Virus record (IMG/VR): IMGVR_UViG_3300036861_000887
Span: 1 to 61,345 of that record
Reading direction: 5' to 3' (one strand)
Origin: a virus
Taxonomy: Duplodnaviria; Caudoviricetes
Length of the DNA stretch: 61,345 nt
The position numbers and the translations under genes are program-made. Shown one piece after another: positions 1,901-50,935 of the stretch. Within the stretch, counting starts at the first letter, position 1; the number at the start of each line of letters is the position of its first letter. Below the pieces are notes generated by a model. That model saw nothing but the letters and a program-made list of their open reading frames with translations. It was not told where the DNA came from and ran no database searches.

Positions 1901-4900
1901 CGGCCACCTCCAATACTCAGGGAGCGTAAGGCTTGTTCCAATGCGGGCTCTTGTGGACTGGGCTCGACGGTGCCACGTCGTTGCCCCATAGCAGTCTTGC
2001 GGGCATCCTGCACCCGCTCAAACAGTTCCTGCTGAAACTCAGGACGGCCAGGGGTGACCATGACGCGCCGAGCCAGGTCTTGATACTGATGGGCGAGGGC
2101 GCGAATGCGCAGCGACTGTTCCCCCTCTGGCCCCGGACTCAACTTGCGAAAGGCCGCGTTGTCATACCAGTCGGTGAGCCGATCCACGAAGGTTTTGCCC
2201 CCGAGTTTCAACCCATCCCGAGCCAGCACCTGATACGCATCATACTCGGCATTGGTCATACGGACGTCGTGCTCTAAGGTCCGGGAGGGTTTCGACAAGT
2301 CCAGCCCATTCTCTAGGAGGAGGTGATTCGCGGGCAGTTGCTCCGTCTTGCGGAGGGGGAACGGCATGGCAAACCGATAGGCTCCGTTCACCATCCCCTC
2401 AGCCGCGCCATGTGCATAGAGCACTGGTTGCGCCAGGGTATTGCGCGAGGGCGCCAAGGTCGCGGAGACGCCAGGGGTCACGGCCATCAGCCCTTCCAGG
2501 ACCGTTTCGGCTTCGCGCACTTCCGGGTCAATCGCCCGCGCGAGTTGGCGGAGGAGCGACGGCTCCAGGCCTTGCACGAAGCGCGTCAGGGCCTTCGTGG
2601 GGCCTTTCATGGCGTCCGTGGCGGTATCGCCCCGTCCAGACAGCAGATCGACAACATTCGAGAAGCCCGTCAGAAACGACTTATCTTTATAGGCCTTCAT
2701 AAAGCCTAAGAGTGTGCCTGCCACCGCTTCTTGGTGTTGCCCTTCCGGAGCAGCGCCGCTCGTTTGGGCAAGAATCGCCCCTTGGATGAGGAAGTTGGAG
2801 ACGGGATCCCCACGACTCAGGCCAATCGTCTGGTCTGTGCCGGGAATATGAAGCGCCCAGGGTTGGAAGCCTTCCCCTTTCAGCATGCCTTGCAAGACGG
2901 GATTTTGGGAGCCAGGCCCCGTAATATAGCCTTGGGAAGCCAGATACGCCGTTACGCCCATCATGGCGGCCCCCAACTCCATCTTCGCCATCGTCTCCGC
3001 CGCATCAATACCGCCTCGGCCGAGGGCCGCCCGGACTTCGCGACTAGCCAGCGCAAGCCCAGGGGTGCGCTCAAAGGTATAGCGCAAGATATTGGTAGGG
3101 GTGCGCACAAAGGGGACAATCATCTTGGCGAGGGGATGAGTGTTTGAAAACATTTGAATCCCCGAGGCTCCCTGGCCCAGCCTGGCAAAGGGCACGTCAG
3201 GCGCGGAGAGTTTTTGCTGCATGGTTTGGTAAAAGGCAAAGTCCCGCGCTTTCTCAATGACTTCAACAGGTGGGTCATTGAGAAACTGGGCCATAAAGGC
3301 GGCACGGTCCGCTTCGGGGATAGTCTGCGCCGCGCGGAGCGATTCTTTCCGCAACATCATGCGATAATTGACGCCTTTGAATATCTCATCCACGGCATCC
3401 AACGCTTTCGATGGAGTGCGGATCACAGACCCCAGCAACTCCACTGCCCGCCCCACGGGGGTATTCCTCGCCAAGTTAAACGTCTCGGCGGTCATCGCAG
3501 GCTTATGGAGTTCCGCCACGCGACCGGCCGCACTGCCAAACTGTCCCTCCCCGCGCCACGAGGCTGCCGCCATTTTGAAAGCGTCCATATACCCCTCCAG
3601 CATGCCGTAGAGCATCTGCACCGCTTCCCCAGCCTGGGCATCCTCCCGCATAATCTTGGCATTGGCGACGGTCAGAAGCTGCTCAGGAATCGCCATGAGG
3701 GTGGTGAGCGCATTGCCCGCCAACTGGGACACATGCGTCTGGGGACCACTGAGGAGCCCATTCACATACAGCTCCAGAAAGGCCTGGGTTTTGGTCGGGG
3801 TGGTGGCCTGGTCAATGAAGCGGTTCAGGGCTTGGGGTGTCTTGAGGGATTGCACCATCTCTGCCAGTCGCTCGGCACTGATCCCCTCACTCGACGCGGG
3901 AATACTCATCTTTTTGAGCGCCTGCTGAATGGTCTCGTAATACTCCAGTTCTCCCGTACGACTGGCGCGGAGGATTCCCAAGGTACGCCCCGCTTCGCTC
4001 CGAATCGCGCCAGCCGATTTCTGGATTTCGCCATGGAGCACGAACTGCTTGAGAAAGTCTTGCGTCGCGTCCACATTGCCGCTCTTGACCAGGGTAGCCA
4101 GCCGGTCCAACTCGTGCGCAGAGTCCAGCAGCATCACCTGACTGGCATAGGCGAGGCGGCTATCAATCGCGTGCCCATCCCCCCGCGCCATGAGCCCTTC
4201 GGCGGTGAGTCCCATCTGCTCTGCGAGCTTCTTGGTTTCCTCGAATGATGTGCCCAGGCGGCGGCCCGCCGTAATCTCTGGCTCGAGCGTCTCACTGATG
4301 GCAGAGAGCGTGCGCTTGATATCGTCCGTCGTCACCATTTTGTTGTAGTTGATATCCCGCGCAATCCCCGTCGGGACCTGCCCCGCGTCCTGCATGCCCG
4401 TGCGCATGGCCTGCATTTGCTTGGCCCGCCCCTCAATGGTCTCCGTGTCCATGGCGTGTACGTCGGCCGCGACTTTCCCCGCACGGGCCAAAATGTTCTT
4501 CGCCATGGTACGCGCGGTATCCTGAGCCCCCTGCATGAAGTCGCTGGCGCGTTGACCCAGCGTGCCTTCTAAGGCCTCTCGGCGGACGGCCTGGGTGGCG
4601 GTGGTAATCTCTTCTTCAATGGCCGTAGACGGAAGGCGCTGGGTTAAGCGACGGATCAAGGCTGGGGAGGCGAGTGCCCCGAGTCCTGCGCCAATCAGCG
4701 CGTTTCTAATTCGCTCTCCTGGCGTATCGCCAATCATGCCCCCGGCGACTCCGCCAATACCCGCACGCGCGAGGGCAATGATCACAGCGGCCTGGGTACT
4801 GCCTTCTTCGCCAAGATAGTGCAAGGACTCAGGCGGGGCTTCCCGACGTATTTCGTTGAGGATGTCTTTGAGCGCGTCCTTGCCGCCGGGAATATCGTCT

Positions 4901-6792
4901 GGGGTCGCACCGCGTAACAGCTGTTGTACGCGCGTCATGCCTTCTCCCATCAGCCGATGGGCTTCCTCTTCCGTGACCCCGGTTTCACGAACAAGTCGTT
5001 GCACCGCCATCTGAATCCCTTCCGGCTTGTTGAGGGACGCACCATGCCGTAACGCGAGCTGTGTCGCCAATTCCGGCGCCGCTGGCGTAGCAAAGTGTTC
5101 CGGCATTTGCGTGGTAGGCGCCGCGCGGACAGGCAACGTCGGGCGATAGTCCTGCAACAATTCCTCGGCCCGGCCCAACAAGCGGTCTGCTTCCGGGCGA
5201 CTGACACCAGCCTCGGCCACCAGTTGCCGCGCCATGCGCTCCCGGCCACCCCGTGATCCCAAGAGGTCAGTGTATTGGAGCGCGAGCGCCGTGGCTTCGC
5301 GTAAGCCCTCTTCCTGGGCGAACCGTTCTGGCAGCGGAATCGCCTGGGCTACAGGCGCGGCCGCAGCGGTGGGGGCTTCCGCTGTGGTTCCAGGGGGCAA
5401 CTGTAAGGGGGCCGCCTGGGTGGGACGCGCAATGCGGCCCTGGAAAAACCCTGGCGTCCCAAAGGCGTGCCCATACGTCTCCAGGAGAAGTATCCCCGCT
5501 TCCTGGCGTGAGACATTGGTCAGGGCTTGGAGCTGGGCCACGCTCGCATTAAAGGTCTCTGGCGTGAGTAACGTGCCTTGGTGCTGTTCCACGAGTCCCA
5601 GCGCCAACGCCCCTGGACTTTTGGCCGCCGTCATCACCAGCGTCCGCGCTTCCTCCTCCGGGATGCCATGCCGCGCGGCCACGTTTTGCCATGCCTGCTG
5701 TAACCCGGCCTCCGTCCGGGCCTCCTCTCCCATGCCCAGAATCGTTGCACGGGCAGTCATGGCGGGCGTTTCGGGTGGGGGCGGGACTGGAGGGCCTGCG
5801 CCCAACTGTTTCGGCCGTCCCCAATTGTTGCTATGCGCGGCGCGGATAATCGACACTGCACCAATCGCCCCTTCAATTGCCGCGCGAAAGCCCCCCTCGG
5901 TCACCGTCGTACCCAGGCGTTCCATGAGCCGATGTTTGGCGGTATCTTCCGTGCCAGGCGGCGGCGGTTCAGTCGCCAGAAAGTCTAAGATGGGACCACG
6001 CAGCGACGGCACCAAATCCTTGAGGAGATTCGCAATATTGGGGTTGTCTGGGGAGAAGGCCGAATAACTGGCGGCAAGGCTGGCCAGCCAATCGGCCGTC
6101 TTGGGCGCTGCCCCTGCAATCCCCGCTACGCCCGTGCCGGCATAGTACATCGTAAACGCCGTGAGGAATTGGGACAGGCTCTCCGTCGTATGGCCTACAA
6201 AGCGCGCAGCAGGTGACACGCCAGGCACCTCGAGTGTCCCGATCTTGCCGCTCGATGGCGGAATGGGGAGTTCCAAGGCCTTGGCGGCTGGCCCAAGGAT
6301 GCTCACCGGCTTATCGGTAAACAGGGACGCGAAGTCATCCACCGTCTGCCCCATGCTGGTCAGGGCCTGCTGCATGCCTCGGCTCGCATCCCGGAGTAAG
6401 GGCGATATGACCGGAATTTCGATCCCCAAGGGCTGCATGCCTTGCGCACCCCGCTCCCGCTTCTTGGCCTCTTGCTCTGACTGGATGGTCTCTGCGGGAA
6501 AGGCCAGCCGCTGACGCGCGGCGGCATCCCCGGCCACGGTGCTGGCCGGGGTGGTCGGAGTGGGGGTACTCGGCTCGCCCAGGGTGCCCGGATCCGGAGC
6601 ACCAGGCAACAGGGTGGGTGGGGGCAGCGGGTTGCCGTCGGCGTCGCGTCCCAAGTCCCGCAGCGTCCGCATGAGGAGGAGCGAGCCTGGGCTATTCTCG
6701 TTATAGTACTGGCGGTAGCTATCCGCAATGGTGTTTTGCTGGGGCGGAACAACCGTCAGACCTGGCGTAGGTTGTGTGAGCGGTTCACCCAT
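1897..6792 (-). CDS. Large internal virion (ejection) protein, T7 gp16-like position
   Basis: About 1630 aa, helical and Ala-rich, with a PFVRTPTNI motif common in podoviral large ejection proteins. It is the last of three genes between the GNAT gene and the tailspike. Start moved to MGEPLTQ. Confidence 0.75.
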   Translation of the reverse strand: MGEPLTQPTPGLTVVPPQQNTIADSYRQYYNENSPGSLLLMRTLRDLGRDADGNPLPPPTLLPGAPDPGTLGEPSTPTPTTPASTVAGDAAARQRLAFPAETIQSEQEAKKRERGAQGMQPLGIEIPVISPLLRDASRGMQQALTSMGQTVDDFASLFTDKPVSILGPAAKALELPIPPSSGKIGTLEVPGVSPAARFVGHTTESLSQFLTAFTMYYAGTGVAGIAGAAPKTADWLASLAASYSAFSPDNPNIANLLKDLVPSLRGPILDFLATEPPPPGTEDTAKHRLMERLGTTVTEGGFRAAIEGAIGAVSIIRAAHSNNWGRPKQLGAGPPVPPPPETPAMTARATILGMGEEARTEAGLQQAWQNVAARHGIPEEEARTLVMTAAKSPGALALGLVEQHQGTLLTPETFNASVAQLQALTNVSRQEAGILLLETYGHAFGTPGFFQGRIARPTQAAPLQLPPGTTAEAPTAAAAPVAQAIPLPERFAQEEGLREATALALQYTDLLGSRGGRERMARQLVAEAGVSRPEADRLLGRAEELLQDYRPTLPVRAAPTTQMPEHFATPAAPELATQLALRHGASLNKPEGIQMAVQRLVRETGVTEEEAHRLMGEGMTRVQQLLRGATPDDIPGGKDALKDILNEIRREAPPESLHYLGEEGSTQAAVIIALARAGIGGVAGGMIGDTPGERIRNALIGAGLGALASPALIRRLTQRLPSTAIEEEITTATQAVRREALEGTLGQRASDFMQGAQDTARTMAKNILARAGKVAADVHAMDTETIEGRAKQMQAMRTGMQDAGQVPTGIARDINYNKMVTTDDIKRTLSAISETLEPEITAGRRLGTSFEETKKLAEQMGLTAEGLMARGDGHAIDSRLAYASQVMLLDSAHELDRLATLVKSGNVDATQDFLKQFVLHGEIQKSAGAIRSEAGRTLGILRASRTGELEYYETIQQALKKMSIPASSEGISAERLAEMVQSLKTPQALNRFIDQATTPTKTQAFLELYVNGLLSGPQTHVSQLAGNALTTLMAIPEQLLTVANAKIMREDAQAGEAVQMLYGMLEGYMDAFKMAAASWRGEGQFGSAAGRVAELHKPAMTAETFNLARNTPVGRAVELLGSVIRTPSKALDAVDEIFKGVNYRMMLRKESLRAAQTIPEADRAAFMAQFLNDPPVEVIEKARDFAFYQTMQQKLSAPDVPFARLGQGASGIQMFSNTHPLAKMIVPFVRTPTNILRYTFERTPGLALASREVRAALGRGGIDAAETMAKMELGAAMMGVTAYLASQGYITGPGSQNPVLQGMLKGEGFQPWALHIPGTDQTIGLSRGDPVSNFLIQGAILAQTSGAAPEGQHQEAVAGTLLGFMKAYKDKSFLTGFSNVVDLLSGRGDTATDAMKGPTKALTRFVQGLEPSLLRQLARAIDPEVREAETVLEGLMAVTPGVSATLAPSRNTLAQPVLYAHGAAEGMVNGAYRFAMPFPLRKTEQLPANHLLLENGLDLSKPSRTLEHDVRMTNAEYDAYQVLARDGLKLGGKTFVDRLTDWYDNAAFRKLSPGPEGEQSLRIRALAHQYQDLARRVMVTPGRPEFQQELFERVQDARKTAMGQRRGTVEPSPQEPALEQALRSLSIGGGR

Positions 6793-42119: not shown

Positions 42120-42917
42120 TTAGAGAACTAACCCGCTGCGGGTAGACTGTCCCCCACGTGGGGAGAGACGCGCAGCAGCATTGCGCATCCATTTGCGCCA
42201 CGCTTTGGCCCAATCGCTATGCGGGTCTTTGTACTCGTGGTCGCGCATCTGCGCCGTTTCCCAGTCAATATCGACGGCTGGGACTTCACGCGCAGCCCAT
42301 AATCGGAGCGCCTCAGTGACGACAAAGGTGTCTGGCACAAATTTCGAAATGGGCGATAGGTTTGACCTGGGGGAGACTCTAGAGAGGGGGTCTTTCTTAC
42401 TCTTCTTCAATCCTAGCTTCTTCTCAATCCTAGAAGACAAATCAGGTTGACCGAAATTCGGTTGAACGGATTTCTGTACAGGTTCACCGAAATCAGGTTT
42501 GGTGACTTCGGATGAAGCGCTTGATTTTTCTACACATTCACCGAAATCAGGTTTGGCGACTTCGGCTCCGAAATTATGTTTCGTGACTTCGGTACCGATA
42601 TCAGGTTTAATGATTTCGGTTGGGCATTCGTACACAATCGTTTCCCAGCCGGTAAACTTTCCTCCGTGTCCCTTGACACGTTCCCGCTTCGCATAGCCGA
42701 TGGCTTCGAGTTCATGAAATGCCGAAGCAATAGAAATCCGGCCCTCGCTTGGACTTTGGGCCACAAGATCTTCATAGCGGATTTCCCAATTGTCTGGCTT
42801 AGTGAGGAGGTAGGTGAGCAGCCCGCGTGCCCTGAAGCTCAGGCGCGTATCATTCAGGCCGGTTTTATCCAGAATGACATAGTTATGCTCATGTCTGAGC
42901 ACACGAACTATCGGCAT
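42120..42917 (-). CDS. Phage replication initiator protein
   Basis: NDTRLSFRARGLLTYLLTKPDNWEI winged-helix N-terminus, repetitive linker, DWAKAWRKWMRN C-terminus; directly upstream of the helicase. Confidence 0.85.
   Translation of the reverse strand: MPIVRVLRHEHNYVILDKTGLNDTRLSFRARGLLTYLLTKPDNWEIRYEDLVAQSPSEGRISIASAFHELEAIGYAKRERVKGHGGKFTGWETIVYECPTEIIKPDIGTEVTKHNFGAEVAKPDFGECVEKSSASSEVTKPDFGEPVQKSVQPNFGQPDLSSRIEKKLGLKKSKKDPLSRVSPRSNLSPISKFVPDTFVVTEALRLWAAREVPAVDIDWETAQMRDHEYKDPHSDWAKAWRKWMRNAAARLSPRGGQSTRSGLVL
42487..42619. repeat. Iteron-like repeats (candidate replication origin)
   Basis: Four 25-bp units of consensus CCGAAATCAGGTTTGGTGACTTCGG at 42487, 42541, 42568 and 42595, plus degenerate copies at 42439-42464. 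Confidence 0.8.
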
Positions 42918-42975
42918 AACATCCCCTCTGCCCATTTGTTCCCTCTGGCACGGACGTGATACATGGTGTATATTC

Positions 42976-43220: not shown

Positions 43221-43553
43221 TCACCACCGCACACGGGACCGCCGCCCCGGCCGCCGACTCCGGCGCCGCACCTCCGCCCGTGGCAGGGCCGCGACTTCCG
43301 CTGCCGCGCGCGCATTGTTACACCGCAGACACGCCAGCACCGTCCGCTCCTCGCCATCGGGGCCTCTCTCCCGTCGCCCCGGATCGAGTCGGCTCCGGAG
43401 GTGGTCGACCGTCGCCATCTCGGGCGGCAGGTGTTTGAGATGCGCCGACGGATACCCCGGCATCTCCTCCGGGGGAATCGTCTTGACCCCACAATAGACA
43501 CAGTGCGGATTCTGCGCCCAGAGCCGCCGCCGCCGGTATTTCAGCTTCGCCAT
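43221..43553 (-). CDS. HNH endonuclease
   Basis: HCVYCG...ATVDHL...VLACLRCNNAR. Confidence 0.85.
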   Translation of the reverse strand: MAKLKYRRRRLWAQNPHCVYCGVKTIPPEEMPGYPSAHLKHLPPEMATVDHLRSRLDPGRRERGPDGEERTVLACLRCNNARAAAEVAALPRAEVRRRSRRPGRRSRVRW

Positions 43554-44187
43554 GGCGCTCCTCCTCCCCGCACCGCCGACACTGCGCCACCCATGGAGCA
43601 AAGCAGCGGCGACACACCGGGCACTGCCACCCCTTCGGCGCCTGCTGCACCTCCAATGCGCGCAGCGTCTTCGCCTCATTCCGCGTGAGCGGCCGGAGAT
43701 ACCGCAGCATCTTGAGGCGGCTCGCTTCCTTGAGGGCCACCCGCTTCCCCTCGCGCATCCGCCCAATCGTGGAGAACGAGAGCCCACAGGCCTGTGCCAC
43801 GATGCGGAGCGGCTGCCCCGCGCCTTTCGTCACAAAGGCCGTAATGAGTGCGTCGTCTGCCTCGCGCATAGCCTCCACTTCTCCCACACTGGTGTCCGCA
43901 GGCTGCCGCGCCAGCATCTCGTCCGGCACGAGCACCAACGCAGGCCCCGCCACGTTCAAGACGTTACGCATGGCGCTATCGAGCTTGACGCGGAGCCAGG
44001 TGGCGATGCTGGTCCCTTTGGCCGGATCGTAACTGGCATGCGCCAGGGTGATGGCGAGGTTGCCCACCTCCTGGTAGTCCGACCGATCCGTCCGCTTCCC
44101 CTGGGCACGCCACCAGAAATCCGCCCGCTGCGCGCATAGGACAAGCACCTGCGACCAGGGCAGGCCATGGCAGGTGGCGTCGTCCAT
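43318..44187 (-). CDS. Sigma-region-2-like protein with C-terminal HTH and zinc finger
   Basis: DYQEVGNLAITLAHASYDPAKGTSIATW resembles sigma region 2; LRIVAQACGLSFSTIGRM HTH; GWQCPVC...CRRC. The 3' end overlaps the HNH gene. Confidence 0.55.
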   Translation of the reverse strand: MDDATCHGLPWSQVLVLCAQRADFWWRAQGKRTDRSDYQEVGNLAITLAHASYDPAKGTSIATWLRVKLDSAMRNVLNVAGPALVLVPDEMLARQPADTSVGEVEAMREADDALITAFVTKGAGQPLRIVAQACGLSFSTIGRMREGKRVALKEASRLKMLRYLRPLTRNEAKTLRALEVQQAPKGWQCPVCRRCFAPWVAQCRRCGEEERHGEAEIPAAAALGAESALCLLWGQDDSPGGDAGVSVGASQTPAARDGDGRPPPEPTRSGATGERPRWRGADGAGVSAV

Positions 44188-44679: not shown

Positions 44680-45342
44680 TTAGGTCACTCCTCTGAGTAG
44701 TTGCAAACCGATCCATTTTGTATAGGCTGGGGGAATGGCTTGCGACAGTTCCTCGCGACTCATCCAATCAATCCCCATGGCTTTCTGGGCGTCTGCATGC
44801 GAGATAGACGGCCGACGAATCCGGCTGCCGCCCTTCGCGGTTTTGCCAATGGTGTGGCCCCGCCCTTTCGCCACGCCCCCAAAGACGATGGCGTAGTCTG
44901 CCGTATGATCGCCGCAGTCGGTGCCAAAGAGGAGGCGGGAGGATTCAAACAGGCGGTGACGTTTCACCCGGATCCCGAGCGCTAAGCCACAAATCTGTAT
45001 GGGGAATCGGAGCGGAGCTCTCACGACATTCTCTAGGACATAGGGCACCTGCAACTGAAGGAGCATCTCCCGGAGCGGCGCAATGAGACGAGGGTGGTCG
45101 GTGCGGCCGTGGATGTTATTCGCGACGGTATAGGCCTGGCAGGGCGGGGAGGCGTGTATCAGATCATATTCCTGGCCATGTGCCGCAACGTATTCCAGCG
45201 CATCCGCCTGGATAAATGTCTCACCGCAATATCGTGCTTGAGGCTTGATATCGACACCGGTGACGCGGAATCCAGCATCCTGGTATCCTTTTGTTGCGCC
45301 ACCAGCCCCGCAGAAGAGATCAAGAAGGTGTGGTTTGCTCAT
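44680..45342 (-). CDS. DNA (cytosine-5) methyltransferase, orphan
   Basis: LLDLFCGAGG motif I, HASPPCQ catalytic motif IV, ENV motif VI, RHRLFE motif VIII, QAIPP motif X. Confidence 0.92.
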   Translation of the reverse strand: MSKPHLLDLFCGAGGATKGYQDAGFRVTGVDIKPQARYCGETFIQADALEYVAAHGQEYDLIHASPPCQAYTVANNIHGRTDHPRLIAPLREMLLQLQVPYVLENVVRAPLRFPIQICGLALGIRVKRHRLFESSRLLFGTDCGDHTADYAIVFGGVAKGRGHTIGKTAKGGSRIRRPSISHADAQKAMGIDWMSREELSQAIPPAYTKWIGLQLLRGVT

Positions 45343-45402
45343 GACACGCCTCGTATGCTGCAAGGCGTGCTCGCAATATTGGATGTCTCCTCTGCTGGCG
45401 TC

Positions 45403-45594
45403 GTGTCCGATTGGTGTCCGGGACTGGGAGGGACACAGGGGGAATTGTCCGGCATTTTGGTGGGACTGGTAGAGCGAAGCAGTAGGAGTTTTCCCAAGGT
45501 TTTCCCCAAGAAAGACGCCATATGTTGCCCATCATGCGCAACCGGTTTCCCCGTCATAGAACCTCCTCGTCTGACAGTGTCCGCTCAGTGTCCG
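45403..45594. other. Candidate attP region with arm-type repeats
   Basis: GTGTCCG pairs spaced 11 bp at 45403/45414 and 45577/45588, plus single copies, downstream of the integrase operon. Confidence 0.5.
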
Positions 45595-46126
45595 AGTTCA
45601 GAAAAAACGTAAAAGGATTCGGGGCATCCTCGGGAGGGGTGAATCCTCTGCCAAAGATATTCAATTGGGGTTGTAGCAGGGCGATACACCATCTTTCAAA
45701 CAGCTTGGCCTCTTCTTCAGAGCATTCAAGGTAGGCGAAATCCGTAAAGGCCTTCTCCTCGCTGCGATGTCGGGCAATCCGAGTCATGATATCGGTCGAT
45801 CGTCCAACGTAGACGATGGTCGTGAACGAGAGGAGAAAATAGAGCCCGCAGAGGGGCTTAAAGGGTTGCGCATGGCGACGGATTAACCATTCGACATGCT
45901 CCCGATCAATCGTCTTCAGCGTCAGTGGTCCATAGAGGGCTTCGAGGGGTTTTTTCCCAATACTGTGTAGATCGAGGACGTGGGAGAGCCGTTTTTTGAG
46001 CAAGAGCTGCGCAACAAACTCTGACGTGGAGCCAGAGGACTCCCGATGTTCCTTCCCATTCCGTGAGTAGGCAATCCACCAGATGTTCTTCCGCTGAAAC
46101 ACGCGTCCCTCACCCCGCATCTTCAT
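45554..46126 (-). CDS. Integrase-arm-domain plus GIY-YIG nuclease fusion
   Basis: N-terminus MRGEGRVFQRKNIWWIAYSRNGKEHRESS is paralogous to the integrase N-terminus; C-terminus GLYFL...VYVGRSTDIMTRIARH...E...PQLN. Confidence 0.82.
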   Translation of the reverse strand: MKMRGEGRVFQRKNIWWIAYSRNGKEHRESSGSTSEFVAQLLLKKRLSHVLDLHSIGKKPLEALYGPLTLKTIDREHVEWLIRRHAQPFKPLCGLYFLLSFTTIVYVGRSTDIMTRIARHRSEEKAFTDFAYLECSEEEAKLFERWCIALLQPQLNIFGRGFTPPEDAPNPFTFFLNSDTERTLSDEEVL

Positions 46127-47177
46127 CACTCTCCTTTTGCATATATAGTAACTGTCCCGAAGCGAATGCTTCGAGCCGCCGCATGGCCTCCCGCAAATCC
46201 GCATCACTGACAATATGATACCGATCAAACATACTCCGCGTGGCATGCCCACTGATGGCCATGGCGACTCGCTCCGGAATCCCCGCCTGCACCATGTTCC
46301 GGACGGCCGTCCGGCGCAGATCGTGGAACAGCCGGTAGGGAATGCCCGCCTTGCGTGTGGCCGTCTTCCAGGCGGTGTCAATGTCCCGTACCCGGCGCCC
46401 CTCCCGATGAAAGACGTACGGCACCAGCCGATCCCCAACGGTCCGCTGCGTGGCGCGGTGGTCGATCACTCGGCGCAGGGGGCCATGGAGCGGAATCTGT
46501 CGTCCGCGCCGTGTTTTACTCTGCGCGCTTCGCAGTCGCACCGTCCCTGCCTTGAGATCCACATCCCGCCATTCGAGCGAGAGGATTTCGCCCTTCCGCC
46601 ACCCGGTATAGTACCCAAAGCGCGTGATATCCTGGAGATACGGGGGGAGGTGCGGCAAGAGCCGGTCCAGGTCCGCCGCCTCAAAGAAGCCCTCCCGCAC
46701 ATTGTCCACCGGCAAGCGGCGGATGTGGGGCACACGCAGCACCTGTTGCCGCCGATAGCCGAGCTTCAGGGCTTGTCCCAGGAGTCCGGTGCGCCGGTTC
46801 ACGCTGGCTGGTGCGGCCCCAGCCGCGCGCTGCGCCTGCACGAAGCGGTCAATGACTGTTTCCGTGACGTCCTGGGCGCGCATGGTGCCACAGAACGCCG
46901 TCACATGGGCCAGGTGGGACTGGATATGCCGGAGACTGGCGACATTGCGGAGCGCCAGGTCGGTGACCAGGGCCTCCAGCAGGGTGCTGAGGCGCACCGT
47001 CCGGCTGCCCGCACTGGGCAACGTCCCCTGGTCGCGTTGGGCTAATCGCTGGGTGAGGAGCATCCGGGCCTCACTGCGCCGGGGCGACCGGCTGCTTTCT
47101 CGGGATTCCTGGCCATTCGAGGAATACGCAATCCACCAGACGGGACCGCGCTTGAAGACACGACCATCGCCGCGCAT
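46110..47177 (-). CDS. int: Tyrosine integrase
   Basis: TGWRKGE, SKT, FHDLRRT, SGHAT and RYHI give the full R-K-H-R-H-Y catalytic set. Confidence 0.95.
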   Translation of the reverse strand: MRGDGRVFKRGPVWWIAYSSNGQESRESSRSPRRSEARMLLTQRLAQRDQGTLPSAGSRTVRLSTLLEALVTDLALRNVASLRHIQSHLAHVTAFCGTMRAQDVTETVIDRFVQAQRAAGAAPASVNRRTGLLGQALKLGYRRQQVLRVPHIRRLPVDNVREGFFEAADLDRLLPHLPPYLQDITRFGYYTGWRKGEILSLEWRDVDLKAGTVRLRSAQSKTRRGRQIPLHGPLRRVIDHRATQRTVGDRLVPYVFHREGRRVRDIDTAWKTATRKAGIPYRLFHDLRRTAVRNMVQAGIPERVAMAISGHATRSMFDRYHIVSDADLREAMRRLEAFASGQLLYMQKESDEDAG

Positions 47178-47204: not shown

Positions 47205-47540
47205 TTATGCGCGCGCATTATGGGGATCTCCGTTGCGGGAGGCAAGCCACTGCCGCATCCCGGCCTCGGAACAGTACCACCGGTGGCCATCGTGGATGGT
47301 AAACGGCAGCGTGGCCACCCGCTTGTAGAGCCATTTCTGTGTGACACCCAGGTGCCGTGCCGCGTCCGTGACCGTCAAGAGCGTCAGGCTGGCGGGCAGC
47401 GCGTGCGGGAGGAGCAGGAGTTGCACGCCCAGCGCACTCTGGAGCGCTGCAACCAGCGGGACGAGCGCGACCACCTCCTCTCGACTCAGTTCGGGCACGA
47501 GCGTGAGGAGCCGGTGCACCTGCTGCTGGGGCGTGTCCAT
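47205..47540 (-). CDS. Excisionase-like HTH_17 protein
   Basis: LLTVTDAARHLGVTQKWLYKR; directly upstream of int. Confidence 0.75.
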   Translation of the reverse strand: MDTPQQQVHRLLTLVPELSREEVVALVPLVAALQSALGVQLLLLPHALPASLTLLTVTDAARHLGVTQKWLYKRVATLPFTIHDGHRWYCSEAGMRQWLASRNGDPHNARA

Positions 47541-48701
47541 TAGTCGTTGGTCCTTCCAAGGTGGCCCGCCAGGACGATGGAGATGCTGCTCGCCCAGCCG
47601 AAACAGCACCCCGCCAGCAGGAGCACCGGGCTACACTCGGTCTCAAAGAGCGACGTCACGTAGCACAGGCCAGCGACGCCATAGAGGCCCCATCCGAGCC
47701 GTCGCAGATTGCGCCAATGCACCGCGCTACATGCCGTACAGGCGCGGGCACCATCGGGCGGCATATGCGGGAGCCCTCCGTGCGGGCAGGGCACCTGCTG
47801 TTGGGGCGTGTCCATCATTGCTCCCCGCGGGCGAGGAATCCCGCCAACCGGCTGGACTCCGCGACCCAGCCGACATTGGTCAGCACCAGCACTACTGTCT
47901 CCCCAACCACCCGGTGCCCGCATACCTCGTAGACGTCGATTCCGTGCCGGGGCGGGGTAAGCCAGCGGATGGCGTAGCGGACCTGACTGCCGACCTGCTG
48001 TGGTGTTTCCACGCGCTACCCCTCCATCTCTCGCCACGTGGCAGGAATGTGGGGTGCGTGCCTCGTCTTGGCATAGACCCAGTCAAACTCGGCGCAGAAG
48101 AGGACGGCCATGGCATTCATCTCCCAGATATTGTGGTAGGCTGTGCGCCGCAGCGCCTGCTCCAGGTAGGCAGCGCGCGCCTCCAGGGGATCCCTGTAGG
48201 CAATCGTGAGGCAGCAGGGCTCCTGGGGCGGGTCAGGCATCATTCCTCCTTGCGGGCGATGACGGCGGCCACCCGTAATGTCTCCAAATCGTCGGCAGTG
48301 AGCCGGTCCCTGCCATAGAGCACCATGACGAGGGTTTGTACGTAGCGCGTGAGTTGTGCGACCTCCACCGCGATCCTCGCCAGGCGTTCCCGCGTCTCTG
48401 TGTCCATTCCTCAGTCCCCTCTCACGGGCCTGGCCGGGTTCCTCTCCAGGTGGTGCCATGCACTGTCACGCCCCGGCACGACCAGGCCCGCTCGCTTACT
48501 CCGGATTGATGAAGATCCCGTCATACTCCACGTCGGCCCCCTCGCCGTGTACCGCCAACGACCGCCCGGCGGGAAACGTGAGCGGGGAGCAGCGCCAGCG
48601 GCCGGGTGGAATAACCACCGCGTCACTTTCCCCATCCCAGACCAGCGGCTGCGTGGCGCCAGTGTCTAGATTTGTTAAGGTGGCGAGCACGTGTTCCATC
48701 C
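47540..48701 (-). other. Run of small coupled ORFs (47540-47818 CxxC plus TM, 47815-48012, 48016-48243 and others)
   Basis: Coupled ORFs with RBSs; three genes in this area share an M(D/E)TPQQ(Q)V start. Confidence 0.55.
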
Positions 48702-49974: not shown

Positions 49975-50182
49975 CTTGGGTCCTCCTCTCATGGACTCAT
50001 GACTTCATGATGCAACAAGTATACCCCGCACCGCCTGAGCGGGCTAGGGGTAGGAAAGGGGTCGGGTATGCGGATCAATTGGGCTTTTCTGTTCGGTGTG
50101 CCGGTGTGTCTGGTGTTATCGGTGGCCAGCTATGTGGGATTGGTCGTGATTGCGCGCTGGATCTTCAGCTAGGAGCCATGGT

Positions 50183-50935
50183 GTGTCCAATCTGATCCCG
50201 TTCGAGTTCCATGGGCAAGAAGTTCCTGTACATATGGATGACTCGGGGAACCCTTGGTGGAATGCGTCAGAAATTGGGAAGGTGCTGGAGCATAGCAACC
50301 TTGCGATGCTGGTCAAGCGGCTGGACGAAGATGAGAAGGTCCTAAATTCAATTTATACCCCTGGTGGGCCGCAAGATACGTGGTTTGTCAACGAGTCTGG
50401 CCTGTACAACCTCATCATGGGGAGCCGCAAGAAAGAAGCCAAAGCCTTCAAGCGGTGGGTCACCCATGAAGTACTCCCCGCCATCCGGAAGACAGGGAAG
50501 TATGAAGTACCCAAGGTCCATGACCCGGCGCTACAAGCGCTCATCACCATGTCTGAACAGGTGAAAACGCTGGTCGTGGAACTCGATGCCACCCGGCAGG
50601 TTGCGCATGCTGCAGAGGAAAAAGCCGTCCGGGCCGAGACGAAAGCTGATCTGGCCTTGGAAGATGCGCACTATATGACCGTCAAAGAGTTTATTGGCAA
50701 GAACGGGCTGCTGCGGCAATTCCCGGTCCCGCAGCACAGTCGGATCGGCGCGTGGCTGAAGCGGTACTGCCTGCAATACGGCATTCCTATCCGCAGCAGC
50801 CCGGTCCATGGGGAGTCATGGGAGGAGGAGAACAGCTACAAGGTTGATGTGTTTTATGTCTGGCTGAAGTGGGAACAGACAAAGCCGCAGCAGCAGACGT
50901 TGCGGGCGGTGGCACCAGAACGGAAGACGACATGA
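50183..50935 (+). CDS. BRO-N domain antirepressor-like protein
   Basis: SNLIPFEFHG...PWW...TPGGPQ...VNESGLYNLIMGSRKKEAKAFKRWVTHEVLPAIRKTGKY. Confidence 0.92.
   Translation: MSNLIPFEFHGQEVPVHMDDSGNPWWNASEIGKVLEHSNLAMLVKRLDEDEKVLNSIYTPGGPQDTWFVNESGLYNLIMGSRKKEAKAFKRWVTHEVLPAIRKTGKYEVPKVHDPALQALITMSEQVKTLVVELDATRQVAHAAEEKAVRAETKADLALEDAHYMTVKEFIGKNGLLRQFPVPQHSRIGAWLKRYCLQYGIPIRSSPVHGESWEEENSYKVDVFYVWLKWEQTKPQQQTLRAVAPERKTT

Follow-up and report, generated by a model that had tools for sequence, protein, structure and literature searches.

A GIY-YIG nuclease gene with an integrase-type N-terminal domain beside the integrase gene of a tailed phage: a candidate attachment-site homing endonuclease

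IMG/VR virus record IMGVR_UViG_3300036861_000887, a stretch of 61,345 nucleotides from a member of the Caudoviricetes that was analysed over its whole length (the window), encodes directly downstream of its tyrosine integrase gene (int) a 188-residue protein, P0003, in which an N-terminal domain of the kind found at the start of the integrase (Int) is joined to a C-terminal GIY-YIG nuclease domain. Genes of the same design recur beside integrase genes in other viral contigs, and in two sister lineages the gene is present in some genomes and absent from others with closely related integrases, at or next to candidate attachment (att) sites. We tentatively propose, with a rough probability of 0.45, that P0003 is an optional, homing-type GIY-YIG endonuclease aimed at the arm sites of the phage attachment site (attP).

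An integrase-type domain joined to a GIY-YIG domain

The original prediction, made from the letters of the window and their reading frames, held that the Int N-terminus is echoed in the overlapping downstream gene, and a BLASTP comparison of the two proteins bears this out, with 36 of 79 aligned residues identical (46%, E 4e-11). When the whole record was searched with P0003, the matches were P0003 itself and the Int N-terminus only (57% identity over residues 1–47, E 5.2e-13). According to structural models, the N-domain of the fusion protein consists of strands at residues 5–10, 13–20 and 23–28 followed by a helix at residues 34–51, and a domain with the same strand-strand-strand-helix order is found at residues 1–50 of Int, which also possesses the tyrosine recombinase catalytic domain (Pfam PF00589). 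By analogy with its position in lambda-like integrases, the Int N-domain presumably binds arm-type DNA sites. Many integrase N-termini match the P0003 N-domain at 54–67% identity, and a profile built from integrases only matches it with an E value of 6.6e-28. The window's N-domain and its nearest counterparts are referred to here as the MRG class, to distinguish them from the AP2-like and lambda-like classes described below.

A linker of about 35 residues joins the N-domain to the nuclease domain. The C-terminal half of P0003 belongs to the GIY-YIG superfamily on the combined evidence of profiles and fold. Structure prediction, proposed at the outset as a check, gave an AlphaFold model with a predicted local distance difference test (pLDDT) score of 85.6, in which residues 88–159 superpose on the GIY-YIG domain of UvrC (1ycz; Z 8.7, root-mean-square deviation 1.5 over 68 residues), on I-TevI (1ln0; Z 7.6) and on 2wsh (Z 6.8); a Foldseek search with the model returned 1yd6 with a probability of 1.00 and an E value of 1.9e-3. 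The profile of the family matches 1ycz (E 0.0015) with the GIY, YIG, Arg, Glu and Asn positions in register, and the phage protein family phrog_16880, annotated as 'endonuclease', matches P0003 with an E value of 4.8e-6. Residues Y94, Y104, R114, H118, E142 and N154 are invariant in two alignments of relatives (A1 and A2), as are the equivalent columns of a third (A4), and the same holds for the GLY (residues 92–94) and YVG (residues 104–106) motifs, which align to UvrC. R114, E142 and N154 align with their counterparts in 1ycz and are presumably the equivalents of UvrC R39, E76 and N88. The earlier reading of the Tyr, Arg, Glu and Asn catalytic positions as intact is thus upheld by both the fold and the invariant residues. 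Several relatives score above the cut-off of the Pfam GIY-YIG model PF01541 (P0007, 24.1 bits; L100, 28.3 bits; L041, 23.5 bits; L108, 22.8 bits). No NCBIfam model came near its cut-off, and GIY-YIG clusters of the ESM Atlas were reached at 0.80–0.81, values that we treat as leads only.

The first 11 nt of the fusion gene overlap the end of int, including its stop codon, and the AAGGAG ribosome-binding site within the 3' end of int lies 4 nt from an alternative ATG at 46126 (MKM...) and 10 nt from the start ATG at 46120. At its other end the gene runs, as had been noted from the sequence, onto candidate arm repeats: the second of two GTGTCCG dimers, which are 174 bp apart, falls within its last 14 codons. 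No tRNA-like fragment was found in positions 45250–45750, and no tRNA gene was found within the window.

Recurrence beside integrases and position at attachment sites

Searched exhaustively with HMMER, 1.84 billion representatives gave 1576 matches to the GIY-YIG family. The top 150 of these matches include 131 proteins with the GIY domain, against which profiles built from integrase N-termini only were run; the profiles matched 22 (AP2-like), five (MRG class) and one (lambda class) of the 131. Other family members have coiled-coil or helix-turn-helix (HTH)-like N-termini. In its size and modular make-up the nuclease family resembles homing endonucleases. Full-length relatives of the MRG type are few, namely P0007 (51% identity), P0008 (44%), P0009 and the borderline P0052, so that this exact fusion amounts to four to five clusters among all representatives searched. 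P0007, P0008 and P0009 derive from Logan or ENA contigs of 15.4, 8.8 and 63 kb, respectively. P0009 (269 residues, on a 63-kb ENA contig) keeps about 130 integrase residues ahead of its GIY-YIG domain, including part of the SAM-like core-binding domain (a weak Phage_int_SAM_3 hint), and hence the fusion junction differs between relatives. No close relatives of the window's fusion gene or of its Int were found in viral contigs, and P0003 gave no tblastn match to isolated phages, where a lambda-type sister gave domain-level matches only, to a 'hypothetical protein' in three phages.

A link to arm-site binding comes from the lambda class, in which the fusions L078, L108, P0045 and P0125 match the arm domain of lambda Int, PF09003 (Arm-DNA-bind_1), with 36.6–44.2 bits against a cut-off of 22; by analogy, these matches back the idea of arm-site targeting. 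The window's domain shares with the lambda Int arm domain its position within the integrase and its strand-strand-strand-helix topology but, in contrast to the sister fusions, it matched no Pfam arm-domain model. The AP2-like sisters show weak Pfam AP2 and Arm-DNA-bind_4 hints, and T5orf172 matches on relatives are marginal (E 0.045–0.069).

The proposal that the same architecture, and its linkage to int, should be sought elsewhere proved fruitful, as the design recurs in three N-domain classes. Scanning viral contigs with the AP2-type alignment gave 246 relatives, from which 80 loci were kept, or 81 with the window. An integrase-type N-domain is present in 22 of the 81 gene-bearing loci (15 AP2-like, six lambda-like and the window itself); two of the six lambda-like assignments were made by Pfam, two are duplicates of those, one was made by BLASTP and one by eye. 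A tyrosine integrase gene lies no more than 165 bp away in 19 of these 22 loci, the other three being at the edge of a locus or contig, and after removal of near-duplicates 14 of 17 adjoin an integrase, with the same three edge cases. Among loci with other N-termini, by comparison, an integrase is found within 300 bp in 7 of 59. The neighbouring genes are bona fide integrases by Pfam, and the gene order varies, with the nuclease gene upstream of int, divergent from it or, as in the window, downstream. BLASTP within each locus (69 open reading frames (ORFs) queried) ties the region ahead of the GIY-YIG domain to the N-terminus of the neighbouring integrase in 12 loci and the window (E 1e-4 to 1e-13); in the remaining adjacent pairs the N-termini are visibly of the same class, and the class matches that of the neighbour in every case. 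In five of eight non-redundant AP2-type pairs, the N-domain of the nuclease matches its cognate Int better than any other, and the mean score is 115.8 for cognate and 91.9 for non-cognate combinations. This specificity exceeds what is expected from one old duplication followed by passive co-inheritance, in a sample that is small and made up of related sequences.

Integrases of the MRG type only sporadically have such a partner. Across genomes, metagenomes and viral contigs, a GIY domain was found in one of 109 MRG-type integrase loci, and directly beside the integrase in none of them; the 109 comprise 27 loci from the genome and metagenome scans, which include the single case (L010, where the domain is not beside the integrase), and 82 others without one. 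When genomes and metagenomes were scanned with the MRG-type alignment, nearly all matches were integrase N-termini. In two other arrangements seen in the viral loci, a GIY-YIG gene without an integrase-type N-domain nevertheless adjoins an integrase gene. In L049 (7890–8351) a GIY-YIG gene diverges from an AP2-type Int gene and encodes only about 27 residues ahead of the nuclease domain, and in L043 and L044 a GIY-YIG gene of the coiled-coil type lies immediately upstream of int.

Loci with closely related integrases differ in whether they hold the nuclease gene. L041 and L042 have a tRNA-Met gene, next to it four TTACGCAA repeats, including a pair 10 bp apart, and then the nuclease gene and int, whereas in L193 and L203, whose integrases are 75% and 70% identical to that of L041, the same repeats run straight into the int start codon without a nuclease gene; the 627-bp difference between the two arrangements begins just past the last repeat. 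In L111, which shares its contig with L039, int and the nuclease gene diverge around a 25-bp core resembling the 3' end of a tRNA, about 75 bp from the nuclease gene. Judging from its letters, this core looks like a T-loop followed by an acceptor end that finishes in CCA. Compared with L111, the loci L114 and L115, whose integrases share 86% and 82% identity with that of L036, are without the nuclease gene. Sporadic presence and absence thus holds for two sister lineages (L111 versus L114 and L115; L191 versus L193 and L203), in both of which the flanks are conserved and an insertion or deletion of about 630–740 bp lies between int and the arm repeats or the tRNA-like att core. The integrases of gene-less loci are nested within a set of more distant integrases whose loci have the gene (57–71% identity), from which it follows that the gene was gained or lost repeatedly. 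Two further observations concern these regions. About 1.6 kb downstream of its int gene, L203 holds a weaker GIY-domain ORF (5591–6298, plus strand; E 1.5e-8). In L045, four GTGTGGA words at 4625–4699, two of them 11 bp apart, are the sole copies in the 13-kb locus; they begin at the int start codon, within the divergent int/nuclease region, in a layout that resembles the GTGTCCG dimers of the window.

Features and neighbouring genes of the window

The coordinates of the module and of the adjoining features are collected in Table 1. The HTH_17 gene, int and the fusion gene form an operon on the minus strand, which opens with the HTH_17 gene immediately ahead of int. A role for the fusion protein as an excisionase or directionality factor was considered and rejected; P0003 has no HTH, and the HTH_17 gene fills that slot.

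Table 1. Features of the fusion-gene region, with positions in the window
Feature	Positions	Strand	Evidence or remark
Source record	61,345 bp		IMG/VR virus record, classed linear, about 85% complete (estimate)
C5 cytosine-methylase-like gene, 227 residues	44680-45363	-	next minus-strand gene past the 190-bp gap
Intergenic stretch of 190 bp between fusion and methylase genes	45364-45553		candidate attP core region, by position only
GTGTCCG dimer, 11-bp spacing (45403/45414)	45403-45420	+	candidate arm-type site
Two one-mismatch GTGTCCG copies	45430-45451		45430 inverted (-), 45445 direct
Int-N-domain/GIY-YIG fusion gene (P0003)	45554-46120	-	stop codon 45554-45556
Second GTGTCCG dimer, 11-bp spacing (45577/45588)	45577-45594	+	within the end of the fusion gene
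GIY-YIG nuclease domain of P0003, residues 88-155	45656-45859	-	fold and profile evidence
N-domain copy of P0003, residues 1-47	45980-46120	-	three strands and a helix; BLASTP and models
Tyrosine integrase gene (P0002), 355 residues	46110-47177	-	PF00589 Phage_integrase 4.6e-23, 82.3 bits; phrog_1 integrase 3.2e-47
AAGGAG ribosome-binding site within the int 3' end	46131-46136	-	direct sequence reading
Int N-terminal domain, residues 1-47, presumed arm-type DNA-binding	47037-47177	-	57% identity to P0003 residues 1-47
Xis/AlpA-like HTH_17 gene	47205-47609	-	Pfam HTH_17 E 9.5e-6, 26.2 bits, just below the 27-bit cut-off

The methylase-like gene directly downstream of the candidate attP matches Pfam DNA_methylase with 25 bits, just above the cut-off, and PADLOC MTase_II with an E value of 4.5e-11. 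Its neighbourhood with the nuclease gene raised a restriction-modification-like reading, which was rejected as a general explanation, as no related methylase is present in any other module-bearing locus. Phage replication genes lie nearby, among them a Toprim/DnaB-like primase-helicase gene, an HNH gene and a Bro-N gene. The HNH endonuclease match is weak (43221–43787, minus strand; E 0.0079, below the cut-off) and that of the Bro-N domain protein is clear (50150–50935, plus strand; 8e-21); the two are more genes of the mobile-nuclease or anti-repressor type in the same early region. An ORF just upstream of the primase-helicase gene (42120–42935, minus strand) contains a repeated peptide motif, EVTKPDFGE, and at 42441–42620 clusters of 7-mers (ATTTCGG, ACCTGAT and overlapping words) in four to five copies with a spacing of about 27–54 bp. 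As the ORF adjoins the primase-helicase gene, these clusters look like origin iterons within a replication-initiator gene. Tandem arrays were also seen in the flanking phage DNA of L100 (4054–4168, 27 bp), L043 (4828–4926, about 22–25 bp) and L037 (9013–9121, 12 bp); these arrays have no connection with the module and could represent iterons or coding repeats.

A homing-type nuclease of attachment sites and its alternatives

We infer DNA binding at arm sites, cleavage, homing and the avoidance of self-cutting as the parts of the proposed mechanism. The targeting module of P0003 would be a copy of the arm-type N-domain of lambda-like tyrosine integrases, linked to the GIY-YIG nuclease. As this class of N-domain recognizes repeats beside int in attP, the fusion protein would automatically be aimed at the DNA adjoining its own gene, which would provide the basic requirement of a free-standing homing endonuclease. 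In related phages or prophages that lack the gene, the protein would bind the arm-type repeats at the junction of int and attP and cut near them, and repair of the rival genome off the gene-bearing one would copy the nuclease gene together with the flanking int and att alleles into the rival. The carrier could be protected by an altered cleavage site beside binding sites that are retained, as with I-TevI-type enzymes. The location of the gene at att sites, together with its presence and absence among close int relatives, favours homing over the other two options of the original prediction, the cutting of competing elements and the modulation of directionality.

Several findings weigh against this interpretation. 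For the nuclease domain of P0003 itself, the Pfam PF01541 score stays below threshold (16.6 bits against a cut-off of 22.6, E 0.01). The fold search with the N-domain was non-specific: the best hit (Z 5.7) is an unrelated protein, AP2 entries follow at Z 4.0–4.6, and the arm domain of a P4-like Int (3rmp) was reached by Foldseek only at an E value of 0.67, amid many unrelated rows. The window's own Int ranks 19th among 122 integrase N-domains of the MRG class in similarity to the P0003 N-domain; pair-specific matching is therefore not seen in the window, and the original description of the fusion as a paralogue of its own integrase is too strong there. In the AP2-type pairs, the similarities of the GIY and Int N-domains are roughly congruent, which is also compatible with long co-inheritance and occasional loss. 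A tree of GIY domains, aimed at counting fusion events, was poorly supported (two starred branches of 128). With regard to the proposed target, GTGTCCG occurs 16 times in the window against 11.4 expected, a number reached by 13 of 100 shuffles; clusters of this kind arise zero to four times per 61 kb in Markov shuffles, so that the clustering is statistically moderate, and no GTGTCC cluster was found in any of 27 loci of related integrases. The genomes that carry the gene keep the repeats, as in the window and in L191, which has all four TTACGCAA copies; self-cutting must therefore be avoided elsewhere, perhaps at the cleavage site. Finally, the window's own lineage is without close relatives, and the evidence from presence and absence rests on the sister lineages.

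The proposed nuclease can be set beside several known systems. With the GIY-YIG homing endonucleases of phages, I-TevI and the Seg proteins, it shares the catalytic fold, the design in which a linker separates nuclease and DNA-binding parts, and an optional gene that is present or absent among close relatives; a dual role as repressor, as described for I-TevI, may be a further likeness. In contrast to these enzymes, the DNA-binding domain is N-terminal, so that the domain order is reversed, it is an integrase arm-type domain and not a NUMOD or HTH module, and the gene is located within the attP of temperate phages, adjacent to int, where homing is only proposed. The origin-directed nuclease Odn of phage ICP1 has been described as using a RepA_N domain borrowed from a hostile satellite to cut the origin of that satellite. 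As in Odn and Odn-like T5orf172 proteins, whose available descriptions point to specificity acquired by domain shuffling, a nuclease of the GIY-YIG superfamily is here combined with a DNA-binding domain homologous to that of another repeat-binding protein; unlike in Odn, the domain matches an integrase encoded next to it in its own genome, and att arm sites are the presumed target. HNH-AP2 homing endonucleases (Magnani et al. 2004, cited in PMC10448857) are described in the citing text as joining a nuclease to a three-stranded-sheet domain of the AP2/integrase-N type. Many of the sister proteins found here likewise have an AP2-like N-domain, with the differences that the nuclease is of the GIY-YIG and not the HNH type and that the domain is matched to an integrase and encoded beside it. 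The original statement that no example of such a protein had been described agrees with our search of the open-access literature, which found no paper joining GIY-YIG nucleases with arm-binding domains, excisionases or attP, Odn and the HNH-AP2 enzymes being close conceptual precedents; the words integrase and AP2 are absent from the 2006 survey of the GIY-YIG superfamily.

Among the alternatives, the best placed, although in our view unlikely, is that the fusion protein serves as an accessory factor or regulator of recombination at arm sites, which represses the int operon, competes with Int and so biases integration versus excision, or processes recombination intermediates. Such a role would agree with the 11-nt overlap, which in the window amounts to translational or operon coupling to int, and with the repeats of L041 and L045, which occupy a promoter-proximal position at the GIY and int genes. 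Precedents have been described in part: I-TevI doubles as a repressor at places that have no cleavage site within reach, and arm-site autoregulation of the integrase gene has been reported for IntS of KplE1. However, pure DNA binding does not explain the invariant catalytic residues, a Xis-like HTH_17 gene is already present in the window, and most family members have no integrase beside them (52 of the 59 loci with other N-termini). Also, integrases that are 70–86% identical to those of gene-bearing loci do without the gene, and it is therefore not an essential cofactor.

A domesticated, Odn-like exclusion nuclease, which would destroy the attP of competitors with the same integrase type or att site and so protect the site or block superinfection, seems to us less probable still. 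Odn itself offers a precedent, since by the account cited above its GIY-YIG-type (T5orf172) nuclease is joined to a DNA-binding domain taken over from a protein of the target itself, and the published description of Adi suggests that attP can be a battleground between mobile elements and is already a known target in their conflicts. Other integrases resemble the window's N-domain more closely than its own Int does, as expected if the domain had been taken from, or were aimed at, another element, and the fusion gene is co-transcribed with xis and int. Against an exclusion role, the N-domain class is always that of the adjacent integrase and the gene lies within its own att region, which makes self-targeting equally problematic for exclusion and for homing. 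PADLOC returned weak, domain-level matches only (E 6e-4 to 2e-3), and no competitor element bearing the motif was identified.

A functionless accidental chimera or decaying partial duplication of int, to which the rarity of the exact MRG-type fusion and the untidy junctions suggested by P0009 might point, is very improbable, as the frame is intact and preceded by a strong ribosome-binding site, relatives at 44–51% identity retain both domains and every catalytic residue, the structural model is confident, and the same design recurs in two further N-domain classes; P0007, P0008 and the sister-class fusions likewise refute a one-off chimera without homologues, the outcome that the original prediction had named as its refutation.

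Integrase/att modules set the chromosomal entry sites of temperate phages, satellites and islands, and these modules are swapped between phages. A nuclease that reads integrase arm sites, is encoded in attP and occurs sporadically among relatives would give a concrete mechanism for the swapping of int and att, and the same nuclease would also provide one for competition over attachment sites. Together with Odn, it would, moreover, be the second natural case of a nuclease that owes its specificity to the copied DNA-binding domain of a protein that acts at repeat sites. The allele pairs L191/L193 and L111/L114 are ready-made test substrates, and matched pairs of integrase and nuclease with a common recognition domain could be a source of paired tools. 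More speculatively, and with rather less conviction than for P0003 itself, we hypothesize that GIY-YIG nucleases have repeatedly captured the arm domain of a neighbouring integrase, in at least three unrelated-looking classes, and make up a widespread, undescribed group of att-site homing endonucleases that are inserted in attP, cut the att arms of rivals and spread with the int/att cassette. If this is true, integration-site specificity itself would spread by gene drive among temperate phages.

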